A stretch of DNA of 64,000 bases, from assembly GCA_043821365.1 (NCBI GenBank), contig JBDRCX010000006.1, positions 32,001 through 96,000 on the forward strand, given 5' to 3'. Shown here one piece after another: positions 39,014 through 61,252 of this stretch. The translations under genes and the position numbers were made by a program. The notes beneath the pieces are model-generated. The model was not told the origin of the DNA. It saw only the letters and a program-made list of their open reading frames with translations, and made no database searches. This DNA comes from Candidatus Micrarchaeota archaeon (GTDB taxonomy: Archaea > Micrarchaeota > Micrarchaeia > Anstonellales > Bilamarchaeaceae). Numbering within the stretch: position 1 is the stretch's first letter; each line of letters starts with the position of its first letter.

Positions 39014-39751
39014 ATGGAAATAAATCGTGCATTCAGATCAACAACAAAAATTTTACTTGGACAAGAACTTGGACCAGTGGAAGAATACCATGGATTTCTT
39101 AGTAGATATATTGATCTTCCAGTAGAGACAAAATCAATTCTATCAGGAAAGCCAGTTTATCTTGCAGCAGAAACAAAAAAGAAAATTATATCAAACGAAG
39201 AAATGAGTAAGTTGTCTTTGCCTTCGGTAAGTATCAATGAAATAAAAGATATTGATTCCCTTTTTCATGCAGTTCAAGAAAATTTTCATCATGCAGGAAA
39301 TAAGATTGGGGGTCAGTTCAAAGAAATTAATCGATCAGATGAATGTTATGATGTTTATTTCATTAACAATTGCCTCAATGTTTACGAAACTCAATATGCT
39401 TCAAATTGTCAAATGATGAAGGATACTAAATATGTTTTTGGTTGTGCCTGGGGGGTGGAAAATACTTTTGGGATTAATACGAATGAATTCTACAAAGTTT
39501 CGAGAGTATTTGAATCAACGATGGTTCTTCATTCTAATGATGTCTACTACTCTTACAATTGTAGAAATTGCCATGATGTAATGTTTTGTATGAATCAAAG
39601 ATCAAAAAGAAATGCAATTGGGAATAATGAACTTTCAAAAGAAAAATATTTCGAATTGAAGAAAAAACTTCTTTCTGAAATTTGTGATCTGTTAATTAGG
39701 AAAAAAACTGCACCCGGCCATATGGATTTGTTTCAGGGGGTAAATGAATGA
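39014..39751 (+). CDS. Cys-rich repeat protein family, module A
   Basis: STTKILLGQELG..EY, SINEIKDIDS, C-terminal CxxCxxxMFC..I.N...KEKY. Confidence 0.85.
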   Translation: MEINRAFRSTTKILLGQELGPVEEYHGFLSRYIDLPVETKSILSGKPVYLAAETKKKIISNEEMSKLSLPSVSINEIKDIDSLFHAVQENFHHAGNKIGGQFKEINRSDECYDVYFINNCLNVYETQYASNCQMMKDTKYVFGCAWGVENTFGINTNEFYKVSRVFESTMVLHSNDVYYSYNCRNCHDVMFCMNQRSKRNAIGNNELSKEKYFELKKKLLSEICDLLIRKKTAPGHMDLFQGVNE

Positions 39752-40464
39752 ACATTCAGGAAAAATTTGATGGGACAGCATTAGTACTTTTTGGGACTGT
39801 ATTAGGTGAAATTGATGATTTTGAAAAAACTTTAAGCAAGAAACTACCAAGAACAGTTGGTGAGAAAGGACTAACTATACCACAATATGGCTCATTTAAA
39901 AAAATACCAAAAAACAAAGTTGTTCCAATAACTGAATTAGATAGAGTAGGACAACATAGGATAGAAATTGGACCTGGTGAAAATCTGGAAACCATCTCAG
40001 AAAAATGGTCGGAAAAAGCAATTTTTGTAGCAGATTTGAATGAAGGAATAAACAATGAGGTTATTGATTCTGCAATTTATTATAATCTGACAAATGCTTA
40101 CAAAATAATTGATTGTTTTAGTTCCAAACATATTGCATACTCTTTTTTCTCTGATAATTGCGATCATGCATTTGGAATAGAAAAATGCTTTGATTGTAGT
40201 TTTGTAATGAATGTAAGAGCATCCAGAAAAATAACAAGGGCATATGAAGTTGATTTTTCAGAGAACTGTAGTGACATAATGTTTTGCCATAATGTTGCAA
40301 ATGTTAAAGACTCATTATTTTGCCATAATGTAAAAAATCTGAGATATGCAGTGTTAAATAAAGTAGTTGGAAAGGAAGAGTATCTTAGAATAAAGAAAAT
40401 GGTAATTGAAGAAATAATAAAAAAATTAAAAACAAAAAATTCCTATTTTTTGGCATGTACTTGA
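39748..40464 (+). CDS. Cys-rich repeat protein family, module B (C-terminus altered by the 54-bp repeat)
   Basis: KFDGTALVLFG..IDDF, FCHNVKNLRYAVLNKVVGKEEYLRIKK. Confidence 0.85.
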   Translation: MNIQEKFDGTALVLFGTVLGEIDDFEKTLSKKLPRTVGEKGLTIPQYGSFKKIPKNKVVPITELDRVGQHRIEIGPGENLETISEKWSEKAIFVADLNEGINNEVIDSAIYYNLTNAYKIIDCFSSKHIAYSFFSDNCDHAFGIEKCFDCSFVMNVRASRKITRAYEVDFSENCSDIMFCHNVANVKDSLFCHNVKNLRYAVLNKVVGKEEYLRIKKMVIEEIIKKLKTKNSYFLACT

Positions 40465-40565
40465 ACGGCGTTCCGTTCAAGATAGTCAAAAAATTCCTAT
40501 TTTTTGGCATGTACTTGAACGGCGTTCCGTTCAAGATAGTCAAAAAATTCCTATTTTTTGGCATG
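40433..40565. repeat. 54-bp tandem repeat (2 full copies plus 25 bp) made of two hairpins
   Basis: Unit CAAAAAATTCCTATTTTTTGGCATG-TACTTGAACGGCGTTCCGTTCAAGATAGT starting at 40433, 40487 and 40541 (partial). Confidence 0.95.
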
Positions 40566-41294
40566 CTTCCATAAAAGCTCAAACTGTCTGCGGTAGGCTT
40601 CTGCAAGATCCTTTCCACGAATAATAATCCCGTGGAATGGTTCTGAAAATGTAATAAAAGCAACATTATCACCATAGATAAAAGTTGCTGTTGGACTGAA
40701 GAATTCAGATGATAAAAACCTGTATTCAGTGGTACCATAATCCTTTCCTGGAAGAAATCGATCACCTTCCCTAACAAGGACCCGTTCTTTGAGTTTGTGT
40801 TTTTTTAGAAGAAGGAAAATTTTGCTAAGGCCAATGGGATCTGCATCCATGAATTTTTTTTCATCTACACCCATAACAAGATCCTCACCACCGGTACGGA
40901 TAAGGGTTTCAATAACATCCATCATTATGGCTCGCACTGCTTTTTTACCGCTAAAAAGTTCAACCACTGAACGATCTTTCGAAGTGCCTGCTATTTTTGT
41001 AAGTTTTGGCATTATTTTTTTTACATTCTCATCAAATGAACTTGCCCAAGATAGAAATTCAGTTGGTGGAGCTGCATTGTAAAGTCTAACTTTATCTTTG
41101 ATAATAAAACTAACCAAACCTTTTTCAGAGAGTTTTTTCAAAGTGTCATAAACATATGGCCTATAGATACCAGAATATTGTGCAATTGTAGACACTGTTG
41201 CTTCGCCAATTCTCAGAAGAGTTAGATAGGCCAATGCTTCATTTTTTGTAAATCCAAGTTTGGTTAATGATTCTATTTCTTCTTCAAATGCCAT
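40551..41294 (-). CDS. TrmB-family transcriptional regulator
   Basis: LTKLGFTKNEALAYLTLL...RPYVYDTLKKLSEKGLV HTH; C-terminal effector-type domain. Confidence 0.9.
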   Translation of the reverse strand: MAFEEEIESLTKLGFTKNEALAYLTLLRIGEATVSTIAQYSGIYRPYVYDTLKKLSEKGLVSFIIKDKVRLYNAAPPTEFLSWASSFDENVKKIMPKLTKIAGTSKDRSVVELFSGKKAVRAIMMDVIETLIRTGGEDLVMGVDEKKFMDADPIGLSKIFLLLKKHKLKERVLVREGDRFLPGKDYGTTEYRFLSSEFFSPTATFIYGDNVAFITFSEPFHGIIIRGKDLAEAYRRQFELLWKHAKK

Positions 41295-41327
41295 AGTTAA
41301 TTTATGCAATATAGCTATTTTTATGTT

Positions 41328-41349
41328 TGTCGTTCTTACTAATACGACA
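41328..41349. promoter_or_regulatory. Palindromic operator candidate TGTCGT-N10-ACGACA
   Basis: Lies between the divergent TrmB-like and HTH-10-like genes. Confidence 0.5.
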
Positions 41350-41445: not shown

Positions 41446-42102
41446 ATGAAATTTTGTGAAATGGGAGTTTATCATCATGATTGTTGGTTTACAGATGCAA
41501 TAGAAAAATTCCCAGAACTACAAGTCAAAGAAATATCTGCGCGAGTATGCAAATTAGAATCAGGGACAAAAATAAATACTGCGTGCTATCGTTTATTTTC
41601 ACCAAAAAAAGAATCACTAGATGGTTTTGTCAAGCAGATAGTTCCAAATGTATCTGGTGCTAAGCTTCTTTCTAGTGATGGTTCGGTTGCTTTATTGGAG
41701 GTATCATGGAGAGCACCAAAAACCTCCTACGATACTGTACTTGCAAGTGGATGTTCCACCACTTCATCCTGTTATGCAAAAGATGGATATGAAACATACT
41801 CATTATTCACTGAGGATCCTACGCAAATAAAGAAATTGTTTACAGATATGAATGAGATAGGCGAGGTAAAAATATTTGGCATAAAGAATGAACCAAAAAA
41901 TAATGATAATTACGGTCTAACTCCAAAACAAAGACAGGCACTGGCATCTGCAGTTTCCATGGGATATTACGAATGGCCAAAGAAGGTTAACTTAGAGGAA
42001 CTTGCATCCAGACTTGGAATCAAAAGACGTGCATTACAAGAGAATTTGAGAAAAGCGGAAGGTAGAGTGTTGCAGAAACTTTTGGATGAACTAACTAGTT
42101 AG
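41446..42102 (+). CDS. HTH-10 (bacterio-opsin activator-like) transcriptional regulator
   Basis: C-terminal LTPKQRQALASAVSMGYYEWPKKVNLEELASRLGI...ENLRKAE. Confidence 0.9.
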   Translation: MKFCEMGVYHHDCWFTDAIEKFPELQVKEISARVCKLESGTKINTACYRLFSPKKESLDGFVKQIVPNVSGAKLLSSDGSVALLEVSWRAPKTSYDTVLASGCSTTSSCYAKDGYETYSLFTEDPTQIKKLFTDMNEIGEVKIFGIKNEPKNNDNYGLTPKQRQALASAVSMGYYEWPKKVNLEELASRLGIKRRALQENLRKAEGRVLQKLLDELTS

Positions 42103-42866
42103 TTTTTTGCAATTATCCAAAGTGTATCAAAATATGCCCTAAAACTTTTTACTGCTTCTTCACTTTCAATCAGAAACCCTTTTGGCTCATTAGTAAAAAG
42201 TGCGATAAATGCTTTATTTTTATAGAAAACAATTTCCATATTCGTAATAAAATATTGCGGAAGAAAACGAATCTTAGATTTTTTCTGAGTAGTTGCCACC
42301 ATCTTTCCTTTGATATCAAAATTAGCAAGCATGTTCACTTTGATACCCTTTACTACCCTTCTCAGATGATGTTTATAGAAAAAATTTCTCCACATCGAGG
42401 TTATTTCATCTTTTGTTTCCTCGCCATAATAGGCTCCAATCACAAAATATTCATCATCCTTTTCCAACTCATCAACAAGATTCCTAAAGAAACTTGACAC
42501 CCCCTTAAAGCCTTCATAAAGAGTTGCGTTGGTTTTCTGCTCTGCTGCTTTTTTTTGCATTTCTAAATCAGGAAGCAGTTTCATCAGAAGTTCCCGATTT
42601 TGTTCCATACGCAAACGATTTTCATCAACATAATCCATGATTCGTTTAGGCTCCATTGCAGAGAAATGTTTTATTTTACCCTTGAGTACATGACCAACAA
42701 GACCTTTTTTTTCAAGTCGTCCCAGTATTTTGTAAACCTTGGATGATGAAACAGATGCAAGGGACGCGAGCTCTCCTGTTTTTGAACTGCCAAGTTTGAG
42801 AAGTGCAAGATAGACTTTTACCTCTCCTTTGCTCAATCCAATTTCTTCCAATAACTTCAAATCCAT
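42099..42866 (-). CDS. TrmB-family transcriptional regulator
   Basis: LEEIGLSKGEVKVYLALLKLG...VYKILGRLEKKGLV. Confidence 0.9.
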   Translation of the reverse strand: MDLKLLEEIGLSKGEVKVYLALLKLGSSKTGELASLASVSSSKVYKILGRLEKKGLVGHVLKGKIKHFSAMEPKRIMDYVDENRLRMEQNRELLMKLLPDLEMQKKAAEQKTNATLYEGFKGVSSFFRNLVDELEKDDEYFVIGAYYGEETKDEITSMWRNFFYKHHLRRVVKGIKVNMLANFDIKGKMVATTQKKSKIRFLPQYFITNMEIVFYKNKAFIALFTNEPKGFLIESEEAVKSFRAYFDTLWIIAKN

Positions 42867-42901
42867 GAATATTATTGATATTTACAATTTATTAATTTTA
42901 G

Positions 42902-42940
42902 CAACTACGACCCCTCCAGGGGAAGATAGAATTAAAATAC
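42902..42940 (+). promoter_or_regulatory. Conserved upstream motif CAACTACGACCCC..AGGGG plus BRE/TATA-like segment (copy 1)
   Basis: Near-identical to 47077-47115; precedes a fused A-B gene. Confidence 0.65.
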
Positions 42941-42960
42941 ACGCATTGGGCAGTTAGCCC

Positions 42961-44529
42961 ATGGATTTAGATATTTATAATCATTTAAACAAACAATGGA
43001 AATCAACATACAAAATTCTTCTTGGCCAAGAAGCAGATGAACTAATTGAGCATAAAGATTGGCTCTGTAGAGGTAATGGTCCAAGATTACTAAAAAAATC
43101 TTCTATTTCTGGAAAAGAAATTGTATATTCAAGTGATAAATACTCTGATAATTCAAAATGGATAGGACATGATGAAGTGGGGGGGAAATTCGAACCATTG
43201 AATATGAATGAGATCAAAGATATTGATTCTATAATAGAGGCAGTAAGAGAAAGAATAACCTATTCTGGTAGTGTTGTTCTTGGAAACTCGAAATTTGTCA
43301 AAGGTAGTACAACCATTAGTGATTGTTTTTACATTTTGGATTCAGAAAGAGTTGCATTTTCTAAAAATGTTGCGTACTCAACCAGAGGAGGGTACAGTGA
43401 GAACATATTCGGGTGTTATGGTTTCGGGCCAGTAACATTTGCAATAAAATCATATGGGATAACTGAATCAACCAGGATTTTTTTGACTTCAAAAGCAGAT
43501 TTCTCTTCGGATATTTATTATTCGCATGGGATCTCAAACTGTATGGAATGTATTTTTTCATTCAATATAAGAAGCAAAAGATATGCAATTGGAAATTTAG
43601 TTCTTCCAAAAGAAAAATATGCTTTGCTTAAAAAGAAACTTCTTGCTGAGATTGCAGAAAAATTGAAAAAAGAAAAAACACTACCATCAATTGCTGAATT
43701 GATAAAGCATGAGGGAAATCCGATAGAATTGATAGATTTAGTTGGAACCACATCGAAAACTGAAAAGGAAGACAAACAAAGAATCGAAAAAGCATTTAAA
43801 CAAACAACAGAGGTTTTGATTGGTAAACCATTGAATGGCATAGATAAATATGCAACATGGATGAAACGTGAATCAAGTGTTTTATTGAAACCGGCAAACT
43901 CATGTATATCAGGAGAACCAATCACACTACCAGATTATGCAGGATTCATTGATTACCCGGATCAACGACTATTAACCCAAGAAGAAGCATACCGAGCAGG
44001 TGAAAAACTTGCCATTATAGAGGGAGAGGCACATAAATTATCAATTGAAAACGCTTCTGTTATTCTTAGTAAAATAGCCTATTTCTGTCCGTTTTGGTTT
44101 GCAGGAAAACTTGAGAATAATATTGATTCACCATTGAACATTGATTCTAGAGATTGCTATAGTGGAATCTTATACATACGATCAAAATTATGTGCATTTT
44201 CTTTTAGCCCACGAAGTTGCGAATACTGTTTTGGTTCAAGAGAAGGAAGGCATGTTTCATTTTCCATAAATTCACATTTTTCTATGCGTGTAACCCGTTG
44301 TTTCGAAGTGGACCATTGCTCGGATTGCTCAGATTGCTATTTTTGCCACAATTGCGAAAACGTTCAAGATTCAATGTTTTGTTTTAATGTAAAGAATTTG
44401 AGAAATGCAATTGGAAATACTCCAGTTGATCGCGGATTATATCAACAAACAAAGACCAATTTGAGAGAGTGGTTAGCAGAAAAACTTGAACAGAAAAATA
44501 AGGTGGACTCAACTATTTTTTCACTCTAA
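42961..44529 (+). CDS. Cys-rich repeat protein family, fused A-B
   Basis: A: WKSTYKILLGQE, FEPLNMNEIKDIDS; B: IEKAFKQTTEVLIGKPLNGIDKY; C-terminal CHNCENVQDSMFCFNVKN. Confidence 0.88.
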   Translation: MDLDIYNHLNKQWKSTYKILLGQEADELIEHKDWLCRGNGPRLLKKSSISGKEIVYSSDKYSDNSKWIGHDEVGGKFEPLNMNEIKDIDSIIEAVRERITYSGSVVLGNSKFVKGSTTISDCFYILDSERVAFSKNVAYSTRGGYSENIFGCYGFGPVTFAIKSYGITESTRIFLTSKADFSSDIYYSHGISNCMECIFSFNIRSKRYAIGNLVLPKEKYALLKKKLLAEIAEKLKKEKTLPSIAELIKHEGNPIELIDLVGTTSKTEKEDKQRIEKAFKQTTEVLIGKPLNGIDKYATWMKRESSVLLKPANSCISGEPITLPDYAGFIDYPDQRLLTQEEAYRAGEKLAIIEGEAHKLSIENASVILSKIAYFCPFWFAGKLENNIDSPLNIDSRDCYSGILYIRSKLCAFSFSPRSCEYCFGSREGRHVSFSINSHFSMRVTRCFEVDHCSDCSDCYFCHNCENVQDSMFCFNVKNLRNAIGNTPVDRGLYQQTKTNLREWLAEKLEQKNKVDSTIFSL

Positions 44530-44578: not shown

Positions 44579-46222
44579 ATGGAAGGTAGCTACAATGAAC
44601 TCAACAAAGAATGGAAAATAACATCACGACTCGTATTTGGAGGAGAAATAGGGGAACTCCAAGATTATAGAGACTGGCTCATTGAATTGAATAATCCTAG
44701 ATTTACAAAAAACTCCTCAATTTCTGGTAAGGAAACTATTTTCTCAAGTAGTGAATATGATGACCAGTCCAGATTTCTGGCTCTTGACGAAATTCCAGCA
44801 ACACAATATTTTGAACCATTGAAAAATCATCAGATTTTTCAAAATTTGAACGGTAAACCGTTCAATCCTTTGAATATCAATGAGATCAAAGATATTGATT
44901 CCATAGTAGAAGCGATCCAAGAAAGAATCTATTATTGTGGGAATATAGTTTTAGGTAATTCGAAGTTTGTTGAGAAAAGTTCAAACATAACAAACAGTTT
45001 CTATGTTTATGATTCTGTAAAAATTAGTGATTGTAAAAATATAGCATACTCACAGTATCTTCGCCTATGTGAAAATGTATTCGGAACAAATGAGGGTGGA
45101 GAATCAAAATATTGCATACGGTGTTGTATACTTTTCAAAAATGCAAGAAGTTTTGAGTTGTGGAAAAGTACTTGTTGCACAGATTGTTATTATTCATTTG
45201 GATTGAATGGGTGTAATGATGTTATTTTCTCATTTAACATCCAGGGAAAGTCCAACGTAATAGGAAATCTTTCGCTTCCAAAAGACAAATACCGTGAGAT
45301 AAAGAAAAAACTACTTGATGAAATGAGAGACGAACTTGTTAAGACTAAAAAACTACCATCACTCGTAGAGCTGACTATAAAAGAACCGGAAATCCCTGAT
45401 GGCTATGGTTTGTGTGGACAGGATAAGGAAAAAAGCAGAAGTACAGTTGATAGTGCATTTAGCAAAACTTCTGAACTTTTGTTTGGTCAACAACTTCAAG
45501 GAAAGATGGAGGATTACGATGAATGGTTACGCTCACATATAATTGTCCCATATTCTGTGAAATCAGTACTAAGCAAAAAAACAGTCCAACTTTCTCAATG
45601 GCCTGGTTTGGCTCAGTTGCCAAAAAACAGGATAGTAACTTTGAATGAGGCTAGAGAACTAGCCAAACTTATGATAACAAATGAGCAAGCAGAAAGAATA
45701 TCACTAACAAATGCATCAGATTACTTAACAAAAATAGCATATTTCCCACCTGAAGAGATGACAGGAGAAAATACAAACTTAATTGAATGTCAATGGGGAT
45801 CATCAGCAGCAAATTGCTATCGATCTGTGATATGTGTATATAGTAAAAACTGCGGTTATTGTTCCTGGCCACGAAGTTCGGAAAATTGTTTTGGCTGTGG
45901 AATTGTTTTTGACTCTAATTTTTCGATGAAATGCTATGATTCAATTAAACTTTCCAGATGTTTTGAAGTAGATGCATCATCATCCTGTACTGACACGTAC
46001 TTTGCACATAACTGTGAAAATGTACGAGACTCGATGTTTTGCTTCAATGTAAAGAATTTGAAAAATGCAATTGGAAATTGTCAACTCCAAACTGATCAGT
46101 ATAAGAGTATAAAATCATCATTACAAGTGCAACTCCATAATGGATTAGAATTAAAAAAATGTCTTGGTCTAAGTATTTTTAGTCTTAATAGAAATAAGCC
46201 ACTTAAAGCATATCCCACATAA
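44579..46222 (+). CDS. Cys-rich repeat protein family, fused A-B (carries a 17-aa in-frame hairpin insertion)
   Basis: Both modules present; start at ATG 44579. Confidence 0.88.
   Translation: MEGSYNELNKEWKITSRLVFGGEIGELQDYRDWLIELNNPRFTKNSSISGKETIFSSSEYDDQSRFLALDEIPATQYFEPLKNHQIFQNLNGKPFNPLNINEIKDIDSIVEAIQERIYYCGNIVLGNSKFVEKSSNITNSFYVYDSVKISDCKNIAYSQYLRLCENVFGTNEGGESKYCIRCCILFKNARSFELWKSTCCTDCYYSFGLNGCNDVIFSFNIQGKSNVIGNLSLPKDKYREIKKKLLDEMRDELVKTKKLPSLVELTIKEPEIPDGYGLCGQDKEKSRSTVDSAFSKTSELLFGQQLQGKMEDYDEWLRSHIIVPYSVKSVLSKKTVQLSQWPGLAQLPKNRIVTLNEARELAKLMITNEQAERISLTNASDYLTKIAYFPPEEMTGENTNLIECQWGSSAANCYRSVICVYSKNCGYCSWPRSSENCFGCGIVFDSNFSMKCYDSIKLSRCFEVDASSSCTDTYFAHNCENVRDSMFCFNVKNLKNAIGNCQLQTDQYKSIKSSLQVQLHNGLELKKCLGLSIFSLNRNKPLKAYPT
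44819..44874. mobile_element. 51-bp in-frame double-hairpin insertion flanked by TTGAA direct repeats
   Basis: TTGAAAAAT-CATCAG-ATTTTTCAA (44819-44842) plus TTGAACGG-TAAA-CCGTTCAA (44846-44865); absent from paralogs (FEPLNINEIKD). Confidence 0.75.
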
Positions 46223-46940
46223 ACCAAAAGAATTTTCTATAACCATCTGCCAATTGCCTACTCTTCACTACGAATTGGATTGGGTTGTCACCCAACTTCC
46301 CAACTTCAACCCCAGTAAAACTAACCACATAATCTCCAAAAATATCGATTGCAGTTGGACTTGAATATTTTTTTGGTAGGAACTTATATGGTTTCCCAAC
46401 AAATTTTAGTATCTCTGGTTTATTTTCCTTAACCTCATGATCAAATAAATGCATGAATTTTATACCGCGTTTTTTTCTTTCACTATCAAACTTTGGAAGG
46501 AAATATTGCAATCTAGGATCAAGCCAAAATGCTTTTGCACCTATGAAATAGACTGTTTCTTCTTGCTCAAGTATGTCGTTGAGGTAGTTTTTGAATCCTT
46601 CCATACCTCTATAAAAATAAGCTTCTTCATTTTCTCTAACTTTCCGATATTCTTTCTGAAGCGAAGGAAGGATAGCACCCAATTCATTTTGTCTTTCTAC
46701 AAGTATGTCTGCAAGCCTGTTTGGGTCCCTTGGGATATAATGCTTTTTTCCGGATACTACCAACTCTGATATCAGGCCTTTATCGAGTAATTTTGCGATA
46801 GAATCGTAAATGTTTCTTCTATGAACACCAGAACGTACTGCTATCTTTTCTATTGGTGCCTGGCCCATTCTGATTAATGCTTCGTAAACCTTAACCTCAT
46901 TGATTGTAAGGCCTATTTTTGCAAGTGTATCCTCGTACAT
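46203..46940 (-). CDS. TrmB-family transcriptional regulator
   Basis: LAKIGLTINEVKVYEALI...HRRNIYDSIAKLLDKGLI; YSSPTAIDIFGD. Confidence 0.9.
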   Translation of the reverse strand: MYEDTLAKIGLTINEVKVYEALIRMGQAPIEKIAVRSGVHRRNIYDSIAKLLDKGLISELVVSGKKHYIPRDPNRLADILVERQNELGAILPSLQKEYRKVRENEEAYFYRGMEGFKNYLNDILEQEETVYFIGAKAFWLDPRLQYFLPKFDSERKKRGIKFMHLFDHEVKENKPEILKFVGKPYKFLPKKYSSPTAIDIFGDYVVSFTGVEVGKLGDNPIQFVVKSRQLADGYRKFFWFMWDML

Positions 46941-47076: not shown

Positions 47077-47115
47077 CAACTACGACCCCCAGGGGGGAAA
47101 ATAAACTTAAAGAAT
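47077..47115 (+). promoter_or_regulatory. Conserved upstream motif (copy 2)
   Basis: CAACTACGACCCCCAGGGGGGAAAATAAACTTAAAG. Confidence 0.65.
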
Positions 47116-52668: not shown

Positions 52669-53442
52669 CTATTTTTTACCCCCCAAATTGTAGATGTTCA
52701 GAACAAGCTTTTTTTCATTTTCTATTTTTTCTGCAATTTCACTCACAATCATTTTCTTTATTCTAAGGTACTCCTCCTTTCCAACTTCCACATTCATTAT
52801 AGCATATCTAAGCGATTTTGCATTAAAACAGAACATACAATTGTTCAAATTCTCGCAGTTATGGCAAAAGTAGCAATCAGTACAGTTGCTACAATCGCTT
52901 AATTCAAAGCACCTTGCTAGTTTTACGGAATTATAACATTTGATAGAAAAATTTGAAGCAAATAAAAAGTGGGAACCAAAACAATATTCTGATTCTCTTG
53001 GCCAAAAACAGTAAGCATCACATTTTGAATAGATATACCAGACTCCATCTAAACAATGTTGGGCATGCATACAGGTGGATGTTTTTTGAAGGTCTTGATT
53101 CTGGCCAAGCATGACATCAGAAGTTACATAGTTTATTTCTTGTAATTTTTCTGAGGCATTAGATAGGGTTAATGTCTTTGCACCATGTTCTGAGATTTGT
53201 TTTTTACCAAGTTCAAGTGATTCTTCTAAAGTAACAAGATTCTTTTTTATGGAATTGAAGAAGAGGATATCTGGCACGTAGACAATCTTGTCACTTACCT
53301 GGGATTTGGTATGGAGTGCTTTGTTTACATTTTCTAAAAGCCAATTTCGATAGCTTTCCAAATTAGTCAATTTTCTACCGAAAATAATTGAAGTGGTTTC
53401 CTGAAAGGCTTTTTCAATTTCCAAATTACCCATGCACATCAC
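52669..53442 (-). CDS. Cys-rich repeat protein family, module B
   Basis: IEKAFQETTSIIFGRKLTNLESYRNWL; CHNCENLNNCMFCFN. Confidence 0.88.
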   Translation of the reverse strand: MMCMGNLEIEKAFQETTSIIFGRKLTNLESYRNWLLENVNKALHTKSQVSDKIVYVPDILFFNSIKKNLVTLEESLELGKKQISEHGAKTLTLSNASEKLQEINYVTSDVMLGQNQDLQKTSTCMHAQHCLDGVWYIYSKCDAYCFWPRESEYCFGSHFLFASNFSIKCYNSVKLARCFELSDCSNCTDCYFCHNCENLNNCMFCFNAKSLRYAIMNVEVGKEEYLRIKKMIVSEIAEKIENEKKLVLNIYNLGGKK

Positions 53443-54196
53443 CGTTAATTATATCTATCAATGATGGAAGTTTCTTTCTTGCTTTCAGAATCTCACGCAT
53501 TTCACCAATGAGTTTTTCCTTTAATTTATGGTATTCTTCAGGACTAAATTGGTGGTTTCCGATCATATAACTTTTATTTCTTTGATTGAAAGAAAACATA
53601 CAATTGGTGCAATTTTCCAGACTTCCTGTAAAATAACAATCTGATGCAACATAGTTTCTGATGGTTTCCAAGCATCGGACATTTTTGTAGGTTTCAAAGG
53701 TTTTGATATTAAACTTACTCCCTTCACCAATTGCATTACCACCAAAGATGTACTCTGCAAATCTTAGAACTGATGAGTATGCGACAAATTTACAATCATA
53801 AACATCTTGGGTTTTATAAATAAATGAGGAATTGATGCACCTATTAGAGACCTGAACTTCACGGGAGTTACCAAGAACAACATTACCAATATAATATGCT
53901 TTTTCATTAACAGCTTCAATAATGGAATCAATATCTTTGATTTTGTTTATATCATATTTTTGCTTGCCAATTGTGTTCATATATTGATCAATTTCATCAA
54001 GGCTTAGGAATTTGGCCCCTGGAGCAACTTTTTCAGATGATACAATAACTTCTTTCCCAGATAAGGCGGATTTTTTCATACCAAATGGATCAACATATCT
54101 TAGAAGCCATGTCTCGTATTCACCAAGGTTGCCAAGTTCTTCTCCAAATAGCACCTTGGATGTTTTTTTCCATGCAACATTAATATCAGAATTCAT
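53426..54196 (-). CDS. Cys-rich repeat protein family, module A
   Basis: AWKKTSKVLFGEELG; INKIKDIDS; GNVVLGNS. Confidence 0.88.
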   Translation of the reverse strand: MNSDINVAWKKTSKVLFGEELGNLGEYETWLLRYVDPFGMKKSALSGKEVIVSSEKVAPGAKFLSLDEIDQYMNTIGKQKYDINKIKDIDSIIEAVNEKAYYIGNVVLGNSREVQVSNRCINSSFIYKTQDVYDCKFVAYSSVLRFAEYIFGGNAIGEGSKFNIKTFETYKNVRCLETIRNYVASDCYFTGSLENCTNCMFSFNQRNKSYMIGNHQFSPEEYHKLKEKLIGEMREILKARKKLPSLIDIINGDVHG

Positions 54197-54984
54197 TATT
54201 GCTGCCCCACATTAAAAATATTCAAACTAAGTCGTTTGTCTTTTTCTAGTTTTTTTGTAAGTTCTTCAAGAACTTTTTGTTTTATTTCGAGGTATTTTTC
54301 TTTACCGACTTCGATATTGGCAATTGCGTACCTCTTTGCTTTTACATTAAAACAAAACATGCAGTTATTCAGATTTTCACAATTATGACAGAACAGTGAA
54401 TCAGTACAATTGCTACAGTCACTCATTTCAAAGCAACGATTAAGGTTTTCAGAATTGTAACACTTGATACAGAATTGAGAGGAAAAAGTGTAGAAAGTAC
54501 CAATATTGTAATCTGATTGCCTTGGCCAAAAACAATAGAAACAATATTTGGAACGGACAAGAGCAACACACTTGTAACTATAATGAGATGAATAGTAAAA
54601 ATCACAATCAATAAGATTGCTGCACTCACCATAGCGAGTATTTGGAGTGGTGGTGGATAATTTTGCCAAAAGATTTTTAGCAGTGGAAAAGGTTAGTTGG
54701 TTTAGTTCATCATCAGAAAGATGGTTTTTTCCGTGGGTAAAATAGGCTTCTTCTATGGTAAGTATGTTGTGTTTTATGTCTCGATAAAAATCAAATGGTG
54801 GAAGGTATATTTTTTCACCACTAATAAGTGATTTGCCATATTCATTCGTTGATACATTTTCAGTTAGCCAATCTTCATAATCTTTGAAATTACAAAGTTT
54901 TTTGCCTAGAACAATCGAAGTAATGGTCTGAAAAGATTTTTCAAGATCAGATTCTAGTTTATCCATTCCAATCACCTTTCCCAC
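54196..54984 (-). CDS. Cys-rich repeat protein family, module B
   Basis: LEKSFQTITSIVLGKKL..FKDYEDWL; CHNCENLNNCMFCFN. Confidence 0.88.
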   Translation of the reverse strand: MGKVIGMDKLESDLEKSFQTITSIVLGKKLCNFKDYEDWLTENVSTNEYGKSLISGEKIYLPPFDFYRDIKHNILTIEEAYFTHGKNHLSDDELNQLTFSTAKNLLAKLSTTTPNTRYGECSNLIDCDFYYSSHYSYKCVALVRSKYCFYCFWPRQSDYNIGTFYTFSSQFCIKCYNSENLNRCFEMSDCSNCTDSLFCHNCENLNNCMFCFNVKAKRYAIANIEVGKEKYLEIKQKVLEELTKKLEKDKRLSLNIFNVGQQ

Positions 54985-55756
54985 TTATTATCTCTATTAT
55001 CGAGGGAAGTTTCTTCTTTCTTTTAAGTTCATCGGCAAATTCACCAACTAATTTTGATTTCAGTTCAGCATATTTATCTTTAGTCAGCTGTATATTGCCA
55101 ATTAGATAGTTCTTATTTCTTTGATTAAATGAAAAGATACAGTTGGTACAGTCCTCAAGACTTGCAGAATAGAAACTATCAGATGCAACATTACAATGAT
55201 AGGTTTCCAAGCACCGGAGTTGTTTGTGCGGATCAAGGACTTTTATACAGAACTGAATCTCTCCACCAAAACAACAACCAAATGAGTACTCTGGACTGCG
55301 AATAGAAGTTGTATATGCAACGTATTTTCCATCATAAACATCCTGGCAACCCATGGCATAAACAGTATTAACGCAACGGTGTGAGTTTATCACATTGGTT
55401 GAATGTCCCAAAACAATATTTCCAGCATAACAGACTTTTTCTTTAGCTGCATGAATAATTGAATCAACATCTTTGATATCATTGATATTGAAGGGCATTG
55501 AAAACATTCTTTTTTCGTATTCATGCATTTCCTCATGACCTATCACTGGTGCTTGTTTTGGCACCCTATTGGATGAGATTGTAACATCATTGCCACTTAG
55601 AATGGATTTTCTTTTTACGATTGGGTCAGTATATGTTTTTAGATAATTTGTAAATTCTGATAGTTCACCAACTTCTTGACCAAGCAGAACCTTACAAGTG
55701 GATTTCCAAGATTTATTTAATTGATTAATAATCATAGCATCAGACATTAGGATCAC
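54959..55756 (-). CDS. Cys-rich repeat protein family, module A
   Basis: SWKSTCKVLLGQEVG; FNINDIKDVDS; GNIVLGHS. Confidence 0.88.
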   Translation of the reverse strand: MILMSDAMIINQLNKSWKSTCKVLLGQEVGELSEFTNYLKTYTDPIVKRKSILSGNDVTISSNRVPKQAPVIGHEEMHEYEKRMFSMPFNINDIKDVDSIIHAAKEKVCYAGNIVLGHSTNVINSHRCVNTVYAMGCQDVYDGKYVAYTTSIRSPEYSFGCCFGGEIQFCIKVLDPHKQLRCLETYHCNVASDSFYSASLEDCTNCIFSFNQRNKNYLIGNIQLTKDKYAELKSKLVGEFADELKRKKKLPSIIEIISGKGDWNG

Positions 55757-56537
55757 CTTTTCCTATTGAATAAATGTCAAAATTTACGGTTTTAGTTTTT
55801 GATAATTGATCGTTAATATGAGTAAGTAGAATTTTTTTCACACGCATATATTCTTCACGGCCAACTTCTATGTTTCCTATCGCATAGCGCTTATTTTTCA
55901 CATTAAAGCAAAACATGCAGTCGTTCAGACCTTCTGAATTATGACAGAATAGAATATCGCTTGAATGATAGCAACCATCAACTTCGAATGACCGGATAAC
56001 TTTAACTGAATTGTAAGCATGAATGCAGAATTGGGAATAGGGAGTATTATGGCAACCAAACATATTCTGAGAATACATTGGATAGTTGGAATATGCCACG
56101 TTTTTTATGCCGCCATAAAGGTCGTCACCGTAGTATAGATACATGCCATCCCCTGCACCACTGCATTTTTCAATGTTTGAAAATGTCTTCCATCTGAAAT
56201 TACCGATGGCATAGGCAACTGGTTTTACAATCCTGTTTACCATGTCTTTTATGTCAGAATCCTTTATCTCATCATAAATGAATTTAGTATGATTTACTTT
56301 GTCCATTTCTTCCATGGAAATAGATCTTTTGCTTGAAATTTTTCTCCCCATAAAATTTAGAGTTGGGAAGTTCCAAACCTCAACATCACTAACTGCAGAT
56401 TTAGCTGGATGGGGGAGTGGAACATATTTACCAAGCCAGGGACCATAATCATCAATACCAACTAGTGGTTTGCCAAGTAAAAGGTTAGATGTACTAGAAA
56501 ATTCCTTTTCTAATTCAGGCCAGACCATATTAGGCAC
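55740..56537 (-). CDS. Cys-rich repeat protein family, module B
   Basis: LEKEFSSTSNLLLGKPLVGIDDYGPWL; CHNSEGLNDCMFCFN. Confidence 0.88.
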   Translation of the reverse strand: MPNMVWPELEKEFSSTSNLLLGKPLVGIDDYGPWLGKYVPLPHPAKSAVSDVEVWNFPTLNFMGRKISSKRSISMEEMDKVNHTKFIYDEIKDSDIKDMVNRIVKPVAYAIGNFRWKTFSNIEKCSGAGDGMYLYYGDDLYGGIKNVAYSNYPMYSQNMFGCHNTPYSQFCIHAYNSVKVIRSFEVDGCYHSSDILFCHNSEGLNDCMFCFNVKNKRYAIGNIEVGREEYMRVKKILLTHINDQLSKTKTVNFDIYSIGKGDPNV

Positions 56538-57306
56538 CCTCCCCCAGAATATCCATTATGGACATTATTCTCTTTCTTTTTTTCAAATCCTCAGCCATTT
56601 CGCCTATTAATTTTGCCCTCAACGGGGCATATTGTTCTTTTGTGAGTTGTACATTGCCGACCATATTTCGTTTTGCACGTACATTGAAAGTGAAAAGGCA
56701 ATCAGATGAACCAGTAACATTATGGCAGAAATAACAATCAGAACTACTTACAGTAAGACTGCACTCAAAACAGCGTTTGAGAGAATTGTTATAGAGGCAT
56801 CTTATGAGCATGGAACTGTCACCGCTTGAAGTTGATGCAAAACAATATTCGTTATTCCGTAGCATGTAGCAGTATGCAACATATTTTCCATTGACAATCA
56901 TTGATGAATCAAGAACATAATTGCTGTCAGTTATGTTATCTGAATTTTTCACAAATTTCGAGTTTCCGAGAACTTTGTTGCCACTGTAAATGAATTTTTC
57001 TTCTACTGCATCAAAGAGAGAATCAACATCCTTGATTCGGTTTACATCAATTGGCTTGGACAGAATAGATGCACTTTGGATTTCTTTATTGTAATCAAAA
57101 AATCTGGCTTTTGGAGGATAATGTTTTGACGTGACAAATAGGTCTTTGCCAGATATTATTGATTTTACTGATTTGCCAACCAATGGTTCTTTTAGATAGT
57201 CAGAATAATCAGACATCACGCTAAGTGGTTCCCCAAATAGGACTTTGGTAGTTTGCTTCCAAGCATTATCCATAATTGTCTCTATGCCATTAGTTTCGAA
57301 TGCCAT
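56530..57306 (-). CDS. Cys-rich repeat protein family, module A
   Basis: AWKQTTKVLFGEP; DVNRIKDVDS; GNKVLGNS; start at ATG 57306. Confidence 0.88.
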   Translation of the reverse strand: MAFETNGIETIMDNAWKQTTKVLFGEPLSVMSDYSDYLKEPLVGKSVKSIISGKDLFVTSKHYPPKARFFDYNKEIQSASILSKPIDVNRIKDVDSLFDAVEEKFIYSGNKVLGNSKFVKNSDNITDSNYVLDSSMIVNGKYVAYCYMLRNNEYCFASTSSGDSSMLIRCLYNNSLKRCFECSLTVSSSDCYFCHNVTGSSDCLFTFNVRAKRNMVGNVQLTKEQYAPLRAKLIGEMAEDLKKRKRIMSIMDILGEGA

Positions 57307-58886
57307 AATTTTGACCCTCTTCCACCTAAATTGAAAATGCTCCACGGAATGCTCTTTCTTTTTTCAAGATCATCAACGATCTGAGCAAGAACAGTGGATT
57401 TAATTGATTTGAACTTATCCTGTGGCAACACTCCATTGCCAATTGCAAACCGTAAATTTTTTGCATTAAAACAAAACATACTATCTCGTACATTTTCGCA
57501 ATTGTGTGCAAAGTAAATATCTGAACAGTTATTTGATGCATCCACCTCAAATGCTCTTGAGAGATTCATGGAATAATATGTGTGAATACAGAAATTCGAA
57601 GTAAATGAAAGACCACAACCATAGACATATTTTGAATGCCTAGGCCAATAGGAAAAGGCAACATTTTCATTGAATGATGCAATTGGACAGTAATAACAAT
57701 TTACAGAAGTATTGCAAAGTGGAACCATGATTAAATTTTTTGTTTCTCCCAATTGACCTTCTGGATTGAAATAAGCAATTTTACCGATTGATTTTTTCAA
57801 GCTAGACAATGACTCTATATCTTCTCCATCAAGTTGCAGATTTTCTCCTAATGCCCAATTTTCCCATTGGGTAACTAATCGATCACGAGAATAAAGGTGG
57901 AATGGTGAAGTTTCACCAAGATAAACTGGTTTTCCGGTTGCCGAAGATTTTTCTTCACTTATATATGGCACATGACTTAGCAACCAGCCCTTATAATTAT
58001 CAATTTGTGAAAGGGGGTTGTTGAATAAAAGAGATGTTGTTTTTTGAAAACCTAATTCAATAGGTCCTTTATTTTTTTGTTCTTTATCATCAGAAGGATT
58101 GAAATTTTTTGGAACAGGAAGTGCATCACAACTTTTTGATGCAATTTCCATCAATGATGGAAGTTTTTTCTTTATCTCAAGCTCAATCTTAAGATCTTCA
58201 ATAAGTTTTTCTTTTAAAGAAAGATATTTTTCTTTTGTCAATTGGATATTTCCTATGACATTTCTTTTGTTTTTTAGATTAAATGAAAAAAGAACATCCT
58301 GTGAACCCTGGACACATGAACTGAAATAACAATCACTTGAATCATAACATTTCCATGCTTCAAGACATCGTGATTGTTTGTGGGTTTCAAATGCCCTTAC
58401 TGTTGAGGTTGTAAAAGCATCACTAACAACACCAAAAAGATATTTGCTACCCCGGCAATATGAACAATATGCCATATATTCTGAATCATAGATAAAATTG
58501 GAATTGTAAACATAGAACGAGTTTTGTACATCTGAACTTTTTTCAACATGTTTGGAATTTCCAAGAACAACATTACCGCAATAGTAAACTCTTTCTTCCA
58601 AAGCTTCAATGATAGAATCGATATCTTTGATCTCATTTATATTCAATGGTTCGAATTTTTGGCCATAATCAATTTCATCAAGTGAAATAAATTTGGCATT
58701 GTCTTCATAATCAGATACGGCACAGTACACTTCTTTATTTGATTTTGCTGATTTTTTATTTTTTAGAGGAACACAACCTTCTGAAAGCCATTCGGAATAG
58801 TTATCAATATCACCTACCTCTGCACCTAAGAGCACTTTCATAGTAGATTTCCAAGACTTGTTTATTGATTCACGAACCTCGGTCAT
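57282..58886 (-). CDS. Cys-rich repeat protein family, fused A-B
   Basis: FEPLNINEIKDIDS; IELGFQKTTSLLFNNPLSQIDNY. Confidence 0.88.
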   Translation of the reverse strand: MTEVRESINKSWKSTMKVLLGAEVGDIDNYSEWLSEGCVPLKNKKSAKSNKEVYCAVSDYEDNAKFISLDEIDYGQKFEPLNINEIKDIDSIIEALEERVYYCGNVVLGNSKHVEKSSDVQNSFYVYNSNFIYDSEYMAYCSYCRGSKYLFGVVSDAFTTSTVRAFETHKQSRCLEAWKCYDSSDCYFSSCVQGSQDVLFSFNLKNKRNVIGNIQLTKEKYLSLKEKLIEDLKIELEIKKKLPSLMEIASKSCDALPVPKNFNPSDDKEQKNKGPIELGFQKTTSLLFNNPLSQIDNYKGWLLSHVPYISEEKSSATGKPVYLGETSPFHLYSRDRLVTQWENWALGENLQLDGEDIESLSSLKKSIGKIAYFNPEGQLGETKNLIMVPLCNTSVNCYYCPIASFNENVAFSYWPRHSKYVYGCGLSFTSNFCIHTYYSMNLSRAFEVDASNNCSDIYFAHNCENVRDSMFCFNAKNLRFAIGNGVLPQDKFKSIKSTVLAQIVDDLEKRKSIPWSIFNLGGRGSKLWHSKLMA

Positions 58887-60448
58887 TTCATCCCTCCGAT
58901 GGTAAAAATATTAAATCGAAGATTTTTCTTGTCAAGTATTTCTGAACTTAGTTGCTCAGTGATAGATTCTTTTATTTTGGAATAATCTGCTTGTGGGATG
59001 GTCGTATTCCCAATTGCATGCCTCTTGCCTTTTACATTAAAACAGAACATACTGTCACTTAGACCCTCAGAATTATGACAGAAAAATGAATCAGAACATT
59101 TGTTCGACGTGTCTACTTCTAGACAACGGCTAAGATATAGTGAATTATGACAATTGATACAGAACTCGGAATTCATATTACGGTAGCCACCAAAAATATA
59201 CTTTGAACTAAATGCTGATGATATGACACCAAGATTTTCACTTTGGACTATGTCAAAGCCTTTGTAGACATTGTTCGTATAGTAAACTAATGGTGACTGA
59301 ATGATATTACTATTTACACCATCCAAAATTTCAACTGAAAAATAGGCAATTTCAGCGAGATTTGAAATGATTGAATCTACTGAATTGATTTTTGATGGAT
59401 CCAGAGTGAGTTTACTAAGTTCCAACCCTTCCCCTAAAGTAACTAGAAGTTCTTTTGGAAAAAGAGAAAGGGCATATAGATCTGGATGAAGAGGGAGATA
59501 GGTTGTTCTTCCAAACATTGTTTTTATTGAATCCATCTTTATTTTTTCAGATGAAAGCCAAGACTCATAATTTTTTATTGTTCCAGGATCTTTTTTCAGA
59601 ATAATTTTGAATGTTGATGTAAAACTCCTCTCAATTACTTGCATATCGCCTGTATCTGGTTTTTTTGGTGTGGAAAGAACTGGTCGTTTTGGTATTTTTC
59701 CCTTTCTTACTAGATCAAATAATGAAGGGTATTTTTTATTCTTTTTCAGATCATGAACAACTTCGGATATAAGCTTCTTTTTCAATTCTAGATATTTGTC
59801 CCTAGTAAGTTGAAGATTTCCAATTCTATACTTTTTATTTCTTTGGAAAAATGAAAACAAAAGCTCACTAGAATTGACGCATTGATTAGAAAAATAGATA
59901 TCAGTACAATCACCGAGAATTTGACTTTCAAAAATACGCTTGCAATGAAACCCACCATAGAACTTTATTGTAAATTCTGTTTTTCCGAACCACCCTGAAC
60001 CAAAAATATGTTTACTGTTAAGACGAACTAAAGATGAATGGAAAACGTTAGTAGATTGGGAGATATTCAGAGAATTGGCAACATAATTTGAATCCATTAC
60101 AAGATCTGAAGATTCAACGAACTTGGAATTACCTAGAATTCTGTTGCCTGTGTATGTCCATTCTTCAGAAACTGCCCTTGTAATTGAATCAATGTCTTTG
60201 ATATCATTTATTGACAGTGGTTTTGATTCTTTTATTTCATCTGCAGAAATAACTTTTGCCAATTTAGAATAATCTGATGCAAGTACCACATCTTTACCAG
60301 AAATTGCGGATTTTGAAACTTGAGGTTTTGGACAGTACTCCTTCAACCACTCTTCATAATCCCTAAGCTCACCTAGCTCTTCTCCAAGAAGAATCTTGCA
60401 TGTTGATGACCAGGATTTGTTAAGTGATGAATAAAGCTCGGAATTCAT
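58883..60448 (-). CDS. Cys-rich repeat protein family, fused A-B
   Basis: SWSSTCKILLGEELG; PLSINDIKDIDS; IERSFTSTFKIILKKD. Confidence 0.88.
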   Translation of the reverse strand: MNSELYSSLNKSWSSTCKILLGEELGELRDYEEWLKEYCPKPQVSKSAISGKDVVLASDYSKLAKVISADEIKESKPLSINDIKDIDSITRAVSEEWTYTGNRILGNSKFVESSDLVMDSNYVANSLNISQSTNVFHSSLVRLNSKHIFGSGWFGKTEFTIKFYGGFHCKRIFESQILGDCTDIYFSNQCVNSSELLFSFFQRNKKYRIGNLQLTRDKYLELKKKLISEVVHDLKKNKKYPSLFDLVRKGKIPKRPVLSTPKKPDTGDMQVIERSFTSTFKIILKKDPGTIKNYESWLSSEKIKMDSIKTMFGRTTYLPLHPDLYALSLFPKELLVTLGEGLELSKLTLDPSKINSVDSIISNLAEIAYFSVEILDGVNSNIIQSPLVYYTNNVYKGFDIVQSENLGVISSAFSSKYIFGGYRNMNSEFCINCHNSLYLSRCLEVDTSNKCSDSFFCHNSEGLSDSMFCFNVKGKRHAIGNTTIPQADYSKIKESITEQLSSEILDKKNLRFNIFTIGGMK

Positions 60449-60535
60449 GTTAGTATGGACGCTTTAATCATATAATAGAGTAACACCGTTGCAGAGCGGT
60501 TTTGGCATCTCTCAATGAAATAATGCGTTGTTTAA

Positions 60536-61252
60536 TCAGCGCATGATCCGTAAGATGTCATTCAAAACTGGAAGTAACTTCTTTTCTGCTTTTCTCAAAA
60601 GTTCTGCACAAGTAGACGGACTTATGTCTAGTTTCTTTGACAGCTCTTCTATATTGATTTTTTTAGGTTCTTCATAATACCCATATCTACAGGCAAGATC
60701 AAAAACTTCCATCTGTCTATCTGTTAAAATTTCACTGGCAAATTTTAGTTTACTAAACCCAGACGTTCTAAAATTATCAAGAGAAACTGATTGTGAAGGT
60801 TCAAGATATCTTTTTGATTTGATTTTAAGATCATAACCATGGTCTTTTACAAGTTCCATAAAATGTTTTAAACTTTTGAAATTCGGTGCAAGCATGGTAA
60901 CATGATCAACACCATCCTCTGTCCATGTTGGCTCTATCCACATGGTTTTAGTTTTTGCAAGTGCAGGAGCAGTGGCAAGATCCTTGCTTTGTTTAACAGA
61001 AATTTGTGACTTGTGATTACCTATTATGATTATTGCGACTTCTTTGACTTTTGATTGTTTTTTGAAGAGTTCGACAGTAGACCTGAGGTTGGATGTATCA
61101 ACTTCAAAAAGATTAGTAATTGTTTTTTCATCCTGGCCTATTGTTGCAAGCCATTTTATTTTGACATCTTTTAATTTGTCAGTAACTGCTATTGAAGTAC
61201 AATCATGGATTTGTTCAAGCTCCACAATAAGAGGTTGAATTTTATCAGCCAT
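60536..61252 (-). CDS. HTH-10 (bacterio-opsin activator-like) transcriptional regulator
   Basis: LTDRQMEVFDLACRYGYYEEPKKINIEELSKKLDISPSTCAELLRKAE. Confidence 0.9.
   Translation of the reverse strand: MADKIQPLIVELEQIHDCTSIAVTDKLKDVKIKWLATIGQDEKTITNLFEVDTSNLRSTVELFKKQSKVKEVAIIIIGNHKSQISVKQSKDLATAPALAKTKTMWIEPTWTEDGVDHVTMLAPNFKSLKHFMELVKDHGYDLKIKSKRYLEPSQSVSLDNFRTSGFSKLKFASEILTDRQMEVFDLACRYGYYEEPKKINIEELSKKLDISPSTCAELLRKAEKKLLPVLNDILRIMR

Follow-up and report, generated by a model that had tools for sequence, protein, structure and literature searches.

Several described systems pair a HerA/FtsK-superfamily ATPase with proteins encoded beside it or served by it. In HerA-NurA, Sir2-HerA and DUF4297-HerA, the ATPase is adjacent to and co-inherited with a specific soluble partner that is probably multimeric so as to match the ring; type IV coupling proteins (VirD4/TrwB/TraD/TraG) have an N-terminal membrane anchor, and one such ATPase may serve many client proteins; and type VII secretion systems (T7SS) combine an FtsK-type ATPase, EccC or EssC, with many Esx or PE-PPE paralogs made as heterodimers from adjacent genes. 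Very narrow beta-solenoids of ~12-15 residues per coil, with stacked small core residues (Cys, Ser, Thr), are known from the insect antifreeze beta-helix TmAFP (PDB 1ezg) and the Lolium perenne ice-binding protein (IBP; PDB 3ult). Here we describe a locus at positions 39014-61252 of a 64-kb stretch of DNA (the window, G000:C6:32001-96000, from a 1.2-Mb six-contig Micrarchaeota assembly), in which an ATPase of this superfamily stands within an array of genes for predicted cytoplasmic beta-solenoid proteins. The solenoid family exists and its genes are linked to that of the ATPase, both in Micrarchaeota and in gut bacteria, and the ATPase-solenoid pair is a real, undescribed cellular system.

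An earlier note on this DNA, made from the letters alone, had described 14 Cys-rich paralogs with 20 modules that share N- and C-terminal motifs, interleaved with three TrmB-like and two HTH-10-like regulators and one ATPase. The listing of open reading frames (ORFs), their translation and an alignment of the paralogs (A1) bear out the 14 genes and 20 modules, and Pfam matches confirm the other genes as three regulators of the TrmB family, two of the HTH_10 family and one ATPase of DUF87/TrwB type. All-against-all BLASTP gave E values of 1e-15 to 1e-163 for every pair among the 14, and the alignment displays both the N-terminal motif, W/F-x2-T-x3-L-[FL]-G...Y..WL, and the C-terminal Cys-rich block followed by I-G-N...Y. 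Six proteins of ~525 aa contain two modules through internal duplication and eight of ~250 aa a single one, and the modules split into two sub-types, A (the N-terminal halves) and B (the C-terminal halves), with identities of 35-48% among A modules, 35-48% among B modules and only 23-30% between A and B. The array thereby consists of ten A-B units, of which six are fused and the other four split into neighbouring, overlapping A then B genes. In the window and 13 loci of other genomes together we counted 48 AB, 14 A and 12 B genes and zero BA, AA or BB, with A:B at 1:1 in each complete locus; genetically, then, A and B are a pair, and the model of a fused protein supports this. The genome's whole complement of 20 modules is confined to this one array, ~1.8% of the 1.2-Mb assembly. 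Gene overlaps of 1-26 nt mark tight operons, as the note had also claimed, including a minus-strand operon of nine genes that runs from 60448 down to 51093. The solenoid genes and the ATPase gene are as follows.

39014-39751, plus strand: A-type solenoid module gene of split pair 1, with a 4-nt overlap with the next B gene
39748-40464, plus strand: B-type solenoid module gene of split pair 1
42961-44529, plus strand: fused A-B solenoid gene
44579-46222, plus strand: fused A-B solenoid gene (ORF open from 44486, with its probable start at the ATG at 44579)
47156-48748, plus strand: fused A-B solenoid gene
48965-51109, plus strand: soluble HerA/FtsK/VirD4-class ATPase (Pfam DUF87, TrwB_AAD_bind, TraG-D_C)
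51093-52667, minus strand: fused A-B solenoid gene, last of the nine-gene operon, whose protein was modelled
52669-53442, minus strand: B-type module gene, modelled alone
53426-54196, minus strand: A-type module gene
54196-54984, minus strand: B-type module gene
54959-55756, minus strand: A-type module gene
55740-56537, minus strand: B-type module gene
56530-57345, minus strand: A-type module gene
57282-58886, minus strand: fused A-B solenoid gene
58883-60448, minus strand: fused A-B solenoid gene, first of the nine-gene operon

The closest named relatives of the window's proteins are Micrarchaeota of the Bilamarchaeum/Anstonella group. All genomes that we compared are metagenome-assembled genomes (MAGs), and absences are therefore provisional. 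A profile of the 20 modules matched 2491 clusters (50% identity) at E<=1e-3 and 340 at E<=1e-30 among 1.84 billion representatives; its named matches were all "hypothetical protein" from Micrarchaeota, a degenerate motif scan of genome contigs matched Micrarchaeota only, and tblastn of a B module against phage and plasmid collections returned no match. We found no publication on the system, and searches of the literature on the two nearest named genera and on Cys-rich paralogs of Micrarchaeota turned up neither the family nor the ATPase. Of 151 genomes sampled evenly across the phylum, 26 have the solenoid family, nearly all of them in the window's own order (in other families, 0/45 and 1/25), with solenoid partner genes reaching 10-25 per genome and up to 51 candidate modules in some genomes. 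Orthologues of the ATPase (43-73% identity over most of the length) occur in 29 of the 151: both genes are found in 25 genomes, only the solenoid in one (a fragmented genome), only the ATPase in four and neither in 121, counts that carry no statistic since related genomes are not independent.

Physical linkage accompanies this co-occurrence, as the ATPase gene adjoins the array in 7 of 13 loci, drawn from at least six genera and three families. Because the order of a pyridoxal-phosphate (PLP)-dependent enzyme (PALP), the ATPase, the AB genes and an HTH_10 regulator is kept as in the window in three genomes of family f1, the locus is a stable chromosomal site rather than an island. The array is headed by an HTH_10 regulator in 5 of the 13 loci, while TrmB appears in one and Lrp/AsnC regulators in two others, so that of the associations the earlier note had seen in one locus, that with the ATPase extends across Micrarchaeota families and into bacteria and that with HTH_10 recurs in part, but that with TrmB hardly at all (1/13). 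Its idea of a regulated system survives because the ATPase linkage is conserved in other genomes. The PALP enzyme itself (37381-38901, minus strand), the kept left-hand neighbour in genomes G037 and G062, has a C-terminal extension of ~190 aa that includes the most hydrophobic segment of the region (Kyte-Doolittle 2.09 at residue 337).

The same pair occurs in bacteria. The Atlas contains bacterial proteins that consist of one module and share its overall shape (TM 0.81 and 0.88), and a Clostridia locus (L257) encodes a 636-aa ATPase, 29% identical to that of the window over 388 aa (E 7e-37) and with the same Pfam domains, whose gene (7462-9372) overlaps by 8 nt the gene (9365-10063) for a 232-aa single-module homologue. 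The latter aligns with 218 columns of the module profile (hhalign 98.9%, E 1.4e-17); upstream stands the gene (6567-7376) for an AraC regulator that carries a Cass2/GyrI-like effector domain, and unrelated housekeeping genes form the flanks. Relatives of the 232-aa protein are encoded by 111 species-level genomes, mostly gut MAGs labelled Clostridia, Bacilli, Erysipelotrichaceae or Tenericutes, with a few labelled Saccharibacteria or Muribaculaceae. We kept 80 bacterial loci, two of which start at a contig edge and are not testable for the upstream gene, and the other 78 all have the ATPase gene immediately upstream in the same orientation (78/78). As the AraC/Cass2 regulator is also present in 55 of the 80 loci and other neighbours are common to only 2-3, the conserved bacterial unit is regulator, ATPase and solenoid. 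The Atlas clusters nearest the bacterial ATPase carry the labels Saccharimonadota, Bacillota and Micrarchaeota.

Several contigs labelled Saccharibacteria or Muribaculaceae (among L258-L337) encode proteins 44-53% identical to the Clostridia query, which suggests mis-binning or recent transfer. The earlier note's mention of similar proteins in the candidate phyla radiation (CPR) and DPANN genomes holds for Micrarchaeota, to which gut Bacillota-type MAGs can be added, but occurrence in CPR is only a lead.

The ATPase of the window has a ~200-aa N-domain without a family match, for which language-model searches gave only weak leads (DUF8128 and the N-domains of VirB4/TraC), a P-loop core bearing Walker A and B motifs, and a Pro/Glu/Lys-rich tail (residues ~560-714) that is probably disordered and varies greatly in length among orthologues, whose total length is ~560-990 aa and whose first ~555 residues are strongly conserved. 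It has no transmembrane (TM) segment, its highest 19-residue Kyte-Doolittle mean being 1.66 at residue 405 with nothing N-terminal. Pfam finds DUF87 in 45 of 45 orthologues, TrwB_AAD_bind in 45 of 45 (best E 2.5e-12), FtsK_SpoIIIE in 39, TraG-D_C in 13, the type IV secretion system (T4SS) family T4SS-DNA_transf in 8 and HerA_C, which with the HAS barrel marks full-length HerA, in 2. NCBIfam HerA models align with only ~50 residues round the P-loop (17-21 bits against cut-offs of 800-970), sequence and profile searches of the PDB give P-loop-level matches to HerA, FtsK and EssC only, and PADLOC gives weak P-loop matches only. On these domain matches, the protein is a member of the HerA/FtsK/VirD4 superfamily that appears to stand outside any characterised family therein. 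In another genome (G106:C1:337850-339629), the match to the ATPase beside an AB gene is divided between two frames, with residues 1-209 in one and 219-568 in the other, and that gene may be broken or the assembly in error.

With each of the described ATPase systems the pair has likenesses and differences. It resembles HerA with its partners in adjacency, in co-inheritance and in a soluble partner that is probably a multimer matched to the ring; unlike those partners, the solenoid proteins contain no nuclease, Sir2 or other catalytic domain, there are 10-25 partner genes per genome, and the ATPase matches HerA only round the P-loop and matches T4SS coupling proteins at least as well. Pfam finds no NurA or other nuclease domain among the neighbours, in contrast to HerA-NurA, and PADLOC, which knows HerA-based defence systems, gives no family for the three solenoid proteins tested. 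Type IV coupling proteins share with the ATPase a TrwB_AAD_bind match above the cut-off in every orthologue and in some TraG-D_C; however, the membrane anchor is absent here, T4SS channel and relaxase genes are absent from the window region and from the neighbours in the loci (the rest of the genome was not searched), and the module sits amid chromosomal housekeeping genes. The likeness to T7SS, in an FtsK-type ATPase and many paralogs encoded as adjacent-gene heterodimers, ends with the partners, which are 250-aa solenoids rather than small helical WXG100 proteins, with the ATPase, which has a single P-loop domain, and with the lack of membrane components.

AlphaFold2 models of the fused protein 51093-52667 (from an 89-sequence alignment) and of the single B module 52669-53442 (from a 77-sequence alignment) reached a mean pLDDT of 92.4 and 93.4 and a pTM of 0.90 and 0.88, respectively. 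In the models each module begins with an N-terminal alpha/beta domain of ~100 residues that carries the W-x2-T-x3-L-F-G...Y-x2-W-L motif, followed by a series of very short strands and then a ~22-residue helix. Cys/Ser-rich columns are spaced by 3 within strands and recur every 12 residues (for example at 150, 162, 174, 186, 198 and 210), with two types of hexad in alternation, C-x-[DN]-C-hydrophobic-F and C-x-N-x-x-N. The modules are thus predicted with high confidence to form a narrow beta-solenoid of 12 residues per coil, in agreement with the beta-helix or solenoid that the earlier note had proposed; its plain Cys periodicity of ~6 residues needs correction, as the true period is 12 per coil, with two alternating hexads, and 3 in strands. 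The near-invariant residues of the archaeal modules (Phe, Asn, Gly, Arg, Glu, Asp and Tyr) look structural by their spacing, as an Asn ladder, a Phe stack and a capping or C-terminal cap motif. The solenoid paralogs are soluble by their sequence, with a Kyte-Doolittle mean never above 1.64 over 19 residues and no TM or signal-peptide-like stretch, which confirms another of the note's claims.

Structural alignment with VIA-align returned beta-solenoids exclusively, all weak: phi29 gp12 was best (Z 6.7), then the Lolium ice-binding protein (Z 6.1, root-mean-square deviation (rmsd) 2.6 A over 97 residues), with YadA-type heads, LpxD/GlmU (Z ~5.5) and TmAFP (Z 5.4 but rmsd 8.3 A) among the others. 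Foldseek found nothing in the PDB at E<=0.001 for either model and reached left-handed beta-helix (LbH) proteins only at E>=0.005, TM<=0.25 and rmsd>10 A; with VIA-align these gave Z 5.2-5.6 over ~115 residues, and the ladders repeat every 12 residues against an LbH coil of 18. Pfam Hexapep had no match at E<=1 in 10 paralogs. On this absence and the weak structural matches, membership of the hexapeptide-repeat superfamily is not supported. Nor did Pfam Pentapeptide match the paralogs, which lack the A(D/N)LXX repeat of Qnr/MfpA-type pentapeptide-repeat proteins and have a pI of 6.2-8.8 rather than an acidic, DNA-mimicking surface. TmAFP shares the 12-residue coil period, and both it and Lolium IBP the narrow coil, yet neither is related in sequence to the proteins described here, which are cytoplasmic and have extra N- and C-terminal domains: TmAFP is secreted and disulfide-bonded with the consensus TCTxSxxCxxAx, in contrast to C-x-[DN]-C-x-F / C-x-N-x-x-N without a signal peptide, and the fit to 1ezg is poor. 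Ice binding is an implausible role for proteins that have an ATPase partner and homologues in gut bacteria. For the solenoid proteins, Pfam, NCBIfam and PADLOC gave only sub-threshold noise and sequence and profile searches of the PDB gave nothing, so that the family is indeed uncharacterised, as the note had supposed. The one NCBIfam match of the fused protein, to TIGR00308 (TRM1; E 2.4e-5), scored 23.9 bits against a cut-off of 280 without PDB or profile backing, and we treat it as an artefact of Cys-rich composition.

The paralogs have a long history. In a maximum-likelihood tree of 62 A modules, the ten from the window are never sisters (10 label changes for 10 rows); each groups with modules of other genomes, including those of other families, often with full support, and the split genes form three old clades. 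Because each paralog groups in this way, most of the duplications predate the divergence of the families and the isoforms have been retained, which points to distinct roles and not to a fast-churning repertoire, although local duplications are present in some other genomes. The solenoid proteins nonetheless evolve faster than their neighbours, as orthologues in a same-genus genome are 43-57% identical, against 66-73% for HTH_10b, inositol-phosphate synthase and the ATPase.

We give an even chance to the reading that an old and so far undescribed gene module has expanded in Micrarchaeota to give this array, the module being a regulated machine made of a soluble ring-type ATPase of the HerA/FtsK/VirD4 class, a dedicated cytoplasmic beta-solenoid partner (in Micrarchaeota the A-B pair) and a ligand-type transcription factor. 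The A-B pair, or in bacteria the single module, probably as a dimer, would bind the ATPase ring and could serve as a rigid subunit for recognition or as a scaffold, without enzyme activity, by analogy with NurA or Sir2 on HerA; alternatively, the pair may be the thing that the motor acts on, a client and not an adaptor. The paralogs would be alternative isoforms that share one motor, with the interleaved regulators turning them on in response to different signals. Several points weigh against this reading. The physical binding of A-B to the ATPase, like the choice between adaptor and client, is something that we infer; the ATPase occurs without a detected solenoid in four genomes and the solenoid without the ATPase in one, which may reflect missing assembly in MAGs; the bacterial pair is rare, with one match in 399 evenly sampled Clostridia genomes; the bacterial homologue keeps only R-Y-x-I-x-N...K-E-E-Y...K of the residues conserved in archaea; and no catalytic or ligand site is identifiable among conserved residues that look structural. 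A bolder extension, in which a DNA-translocase-class ring ATPase has come to work on proteins instead of nucleic acid and might thread, load or move narrow, rigid solenoid rods about as thick as duplex DNA, seems to us unlikely; Micrarchaeota would on that account keep a dozen or more interchangeable A-B rods, each with a metabolite-sensing regulator, and if it were true, it would amount to a new type of ATP-driven protein machine common to archaea with reduced genomes and to bacteria.

Other explanations are less probable. The A-B proteins might be cargo that a coupling-protein-like ATPase delivers to a membrane channel encoded elsewhere, for surface display or for transfer to a host or neighbour cell, by analogy with T4SS effectors and VirD4 or Esx/PE-PPE and EccC. 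The Pfam profile of the ATPase orthologues (TrwB_AAD_bind throughout, TraG-D_C and T4SS-DNA_transf in some), a single ATPase for many paired paralogs, the conserved but poorly packed C-terminal tails of both A and B modules, and the small genomes of these lineages, with Micrarchaeota thought to depend on hosts (PMC12892359), all fit this account; but the ATPase lacks a TM anchor and the solenoid proteins a signal peptide, the 13 archaeal and 80 bacterial loci have no recurrent neighbour that is a channel, pilus or other membrane gene, and the 1:1, translationally coupled bacterial pair is a better fit to subunits of a complex, so that we would bet against it. A HerA-type anti-virus system, with the solenoid paralogs as sensors or effectors on the ATPase ring in the manner of Sir2-HerA and DUF4297-HerA, is quite improbable. 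It would explain weak P-loop matches to HerA defence models and mad8, variable copy number and a distribution that is patchy even within the genus (two of seven sampled genomes besides that of the window), but not solenoid proteins devoid of any effector domain (nuclease, Sir2, TIR or protease), a chromosomal position between PALP and HTH_10 kept across several genera, paralogs that are old and retained rather than recently diversified, or the blank search of phage and plasmid collections. The diversified sensing or defence repertoire suggested in the earlier note is not supported, since the paralogs are ancient, PADLOC finds nothing for them and the locus is syntenic and not island-like.

That the pairs polymerise end to end into bactofilin-like rods, which the ATPase assembles or dismantles, we judge very improbable: rigid, narrow solenoids with flat ends in the models, strict 1:1 pairing and cytoplasmic, near-neutral proteins would suit a filament, yet neither sequence nor profile relates them to bactofilin, the N-terminal domain and C-terminal helix cap each modelled solenoid in a way that would hinder head-to-tail stacking, and ten distinct isoforms are hard to reconcile with a polymer. 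The earlier note had suggested inward Cys that could bind metal or Fe-S; that such Cys ladders hold metal ions or Fe-S clusters, whether for sequestration, sensing or redox chemistry, we find extremely doubtful. Cys makes up 2-6% of the paralogs, with C-x2-C spacing in B modules, bacterial homologues are Cys-rich as well (9-14 Cys in ~231 aa), and close relatives come from iron-rich groundwater (PMC8561730); against this, 26 columns in the 89 fused sequences have at least 30% Cys, but none reaches 90%, and most stand at 40-80%, with replacement mainly by Ser and then by Val, Ile or Ala. The window's A modules often carry Ser where B modules carry Cys, and many lack most of the Cys. Because no column is invariant, Ser, Val, Ile or Ala stand in for Cys, and the columns keep to intervals of 3 and 12 residues as the inward core of the solenoid does, the pattern argues that the Cys behave as core-packing positions and not as a ligand set, and a conserved metal or Fe-S site is unsupported.

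Whichever role the pair has, the solenoid family merits attention, as it has ~2,500 clusters, lacks a name, a domain model or a solved relative and yet occupies almost 2% of a reduced genome of 1.2 Mb. Its strict linkage to a motor in an archaeal phylum and in gut bacteria gives a partner to many orphan DUF87 or coupling-protein ATPases and defines a small, clonable and testable cassette of regulator, ATPase and solenoid. Its function could reveal a new use of HerA/FtsK-type motors and explain a major genomic investment by DPANN archaea.

The regulators and the candidate promoter motifs of the array are as follows.

40551-41309, minus strand: TrmB-family regulator 1 (Pfam PF01978, E 1e-17)
41446-42102, plus strand: HTH_10 regulator a (Pfam PF04967, E 3.6e-19), a relative of which heads the array in genome G013
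42099-42866, minus strand: TrmB-family regulator 2, divergent from a fused AB gene (Pfam PF01978, E 7e-16)
42902-42928, plus strand: operator-like motif CAACTACGACCCC-N4-GGGGAARATA, copy 1, in the TrmB2/AB divergent interval
46203-46940, minus strand: TrmB-family regulator 3, divergent from a fused AB gene (Pfam PF01978, E 1.4e-12)
47077-47103, plus strand: operator-like motif CAACTACGACCCC-N4-GGGGAARATA, copy 2, in the TrmB3/AB divergent interval
48901-48919, plus strand: palindromic motif CAAAACCGCTCTACAGCGG, directly upstream of a TATA-like run, before the ATPase gene
60486-60504, minus strand: palindromic motif, copy 2, CAAAACCGCTCTGCAACGG, before the nine-gene operon
60536-61252, minus strand: HTH_10 regulator b, which heads the minus-strand operon (Pfam PF04967, E 2e-19)

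Orthologues of HTH_10b head the arrays of genomes G069, G037, G062 and G109. The operator-like motif has exactly two matches in the 64-kb window (0.00 expected), and the palindromic site, CAAAACCGCTCT(A/G)CA(G/A)CGG followed by a TATA-like run, also has exactly two (0.03 expected); one loose pattern for the latter found no match in the other loci retrieved. The positions of the two motifs fit co-regulation of the motor with the nine-gene operon and separate control of the other AB genes, and the pairing of regulators with sites is inferred. The 80-codon ORF at 48732-48974 (plus strand, GTG start), which spans from the end of an AB gene to the start of the ATPase, overlaps the palindromic motif and has no counterpart in other loci, and it is probably no gene.

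Radical S-adenosylmethionine (radical-SAM) genes of different types adjoin or lie within the ATPase-solenoid neighbourhood in 5 of 11 genomes checked (window 61282-62388 and 63626-64000; L015:6578-9805; L019:9139-10686; G062:C1:668426-668959; G109:C18:5926-6363). We rejected them as a part of the system, as the types differ and the rate is near chance given 4-17 such genes per genome; modification of Cys/Ser-ladder proteins by radical-SAM enzymes is an idea raised despite that rate.

Two repeats mark the DNA of the array itself. The fused gene at 44579-46222 has a 17-codon (51-nt) in-frame insertion, absent from the other paralogs, that duplicates an F-E/N-P-L motif, its DNA copies lying 51 nt apart at 44810-44835 and 44861-44886 (repeat family D12). 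At 40433-40565, a perfect 54-bp tandem repeat, with two full copies and 25 bp of a third, occupies the convergent ends of the B gene 39748-40464 and the TrmB1 gene 40551-41309; both coding ends enter the repeat, and its unit contains the hairpin CTTGAACGG / CCGTTCAAG.

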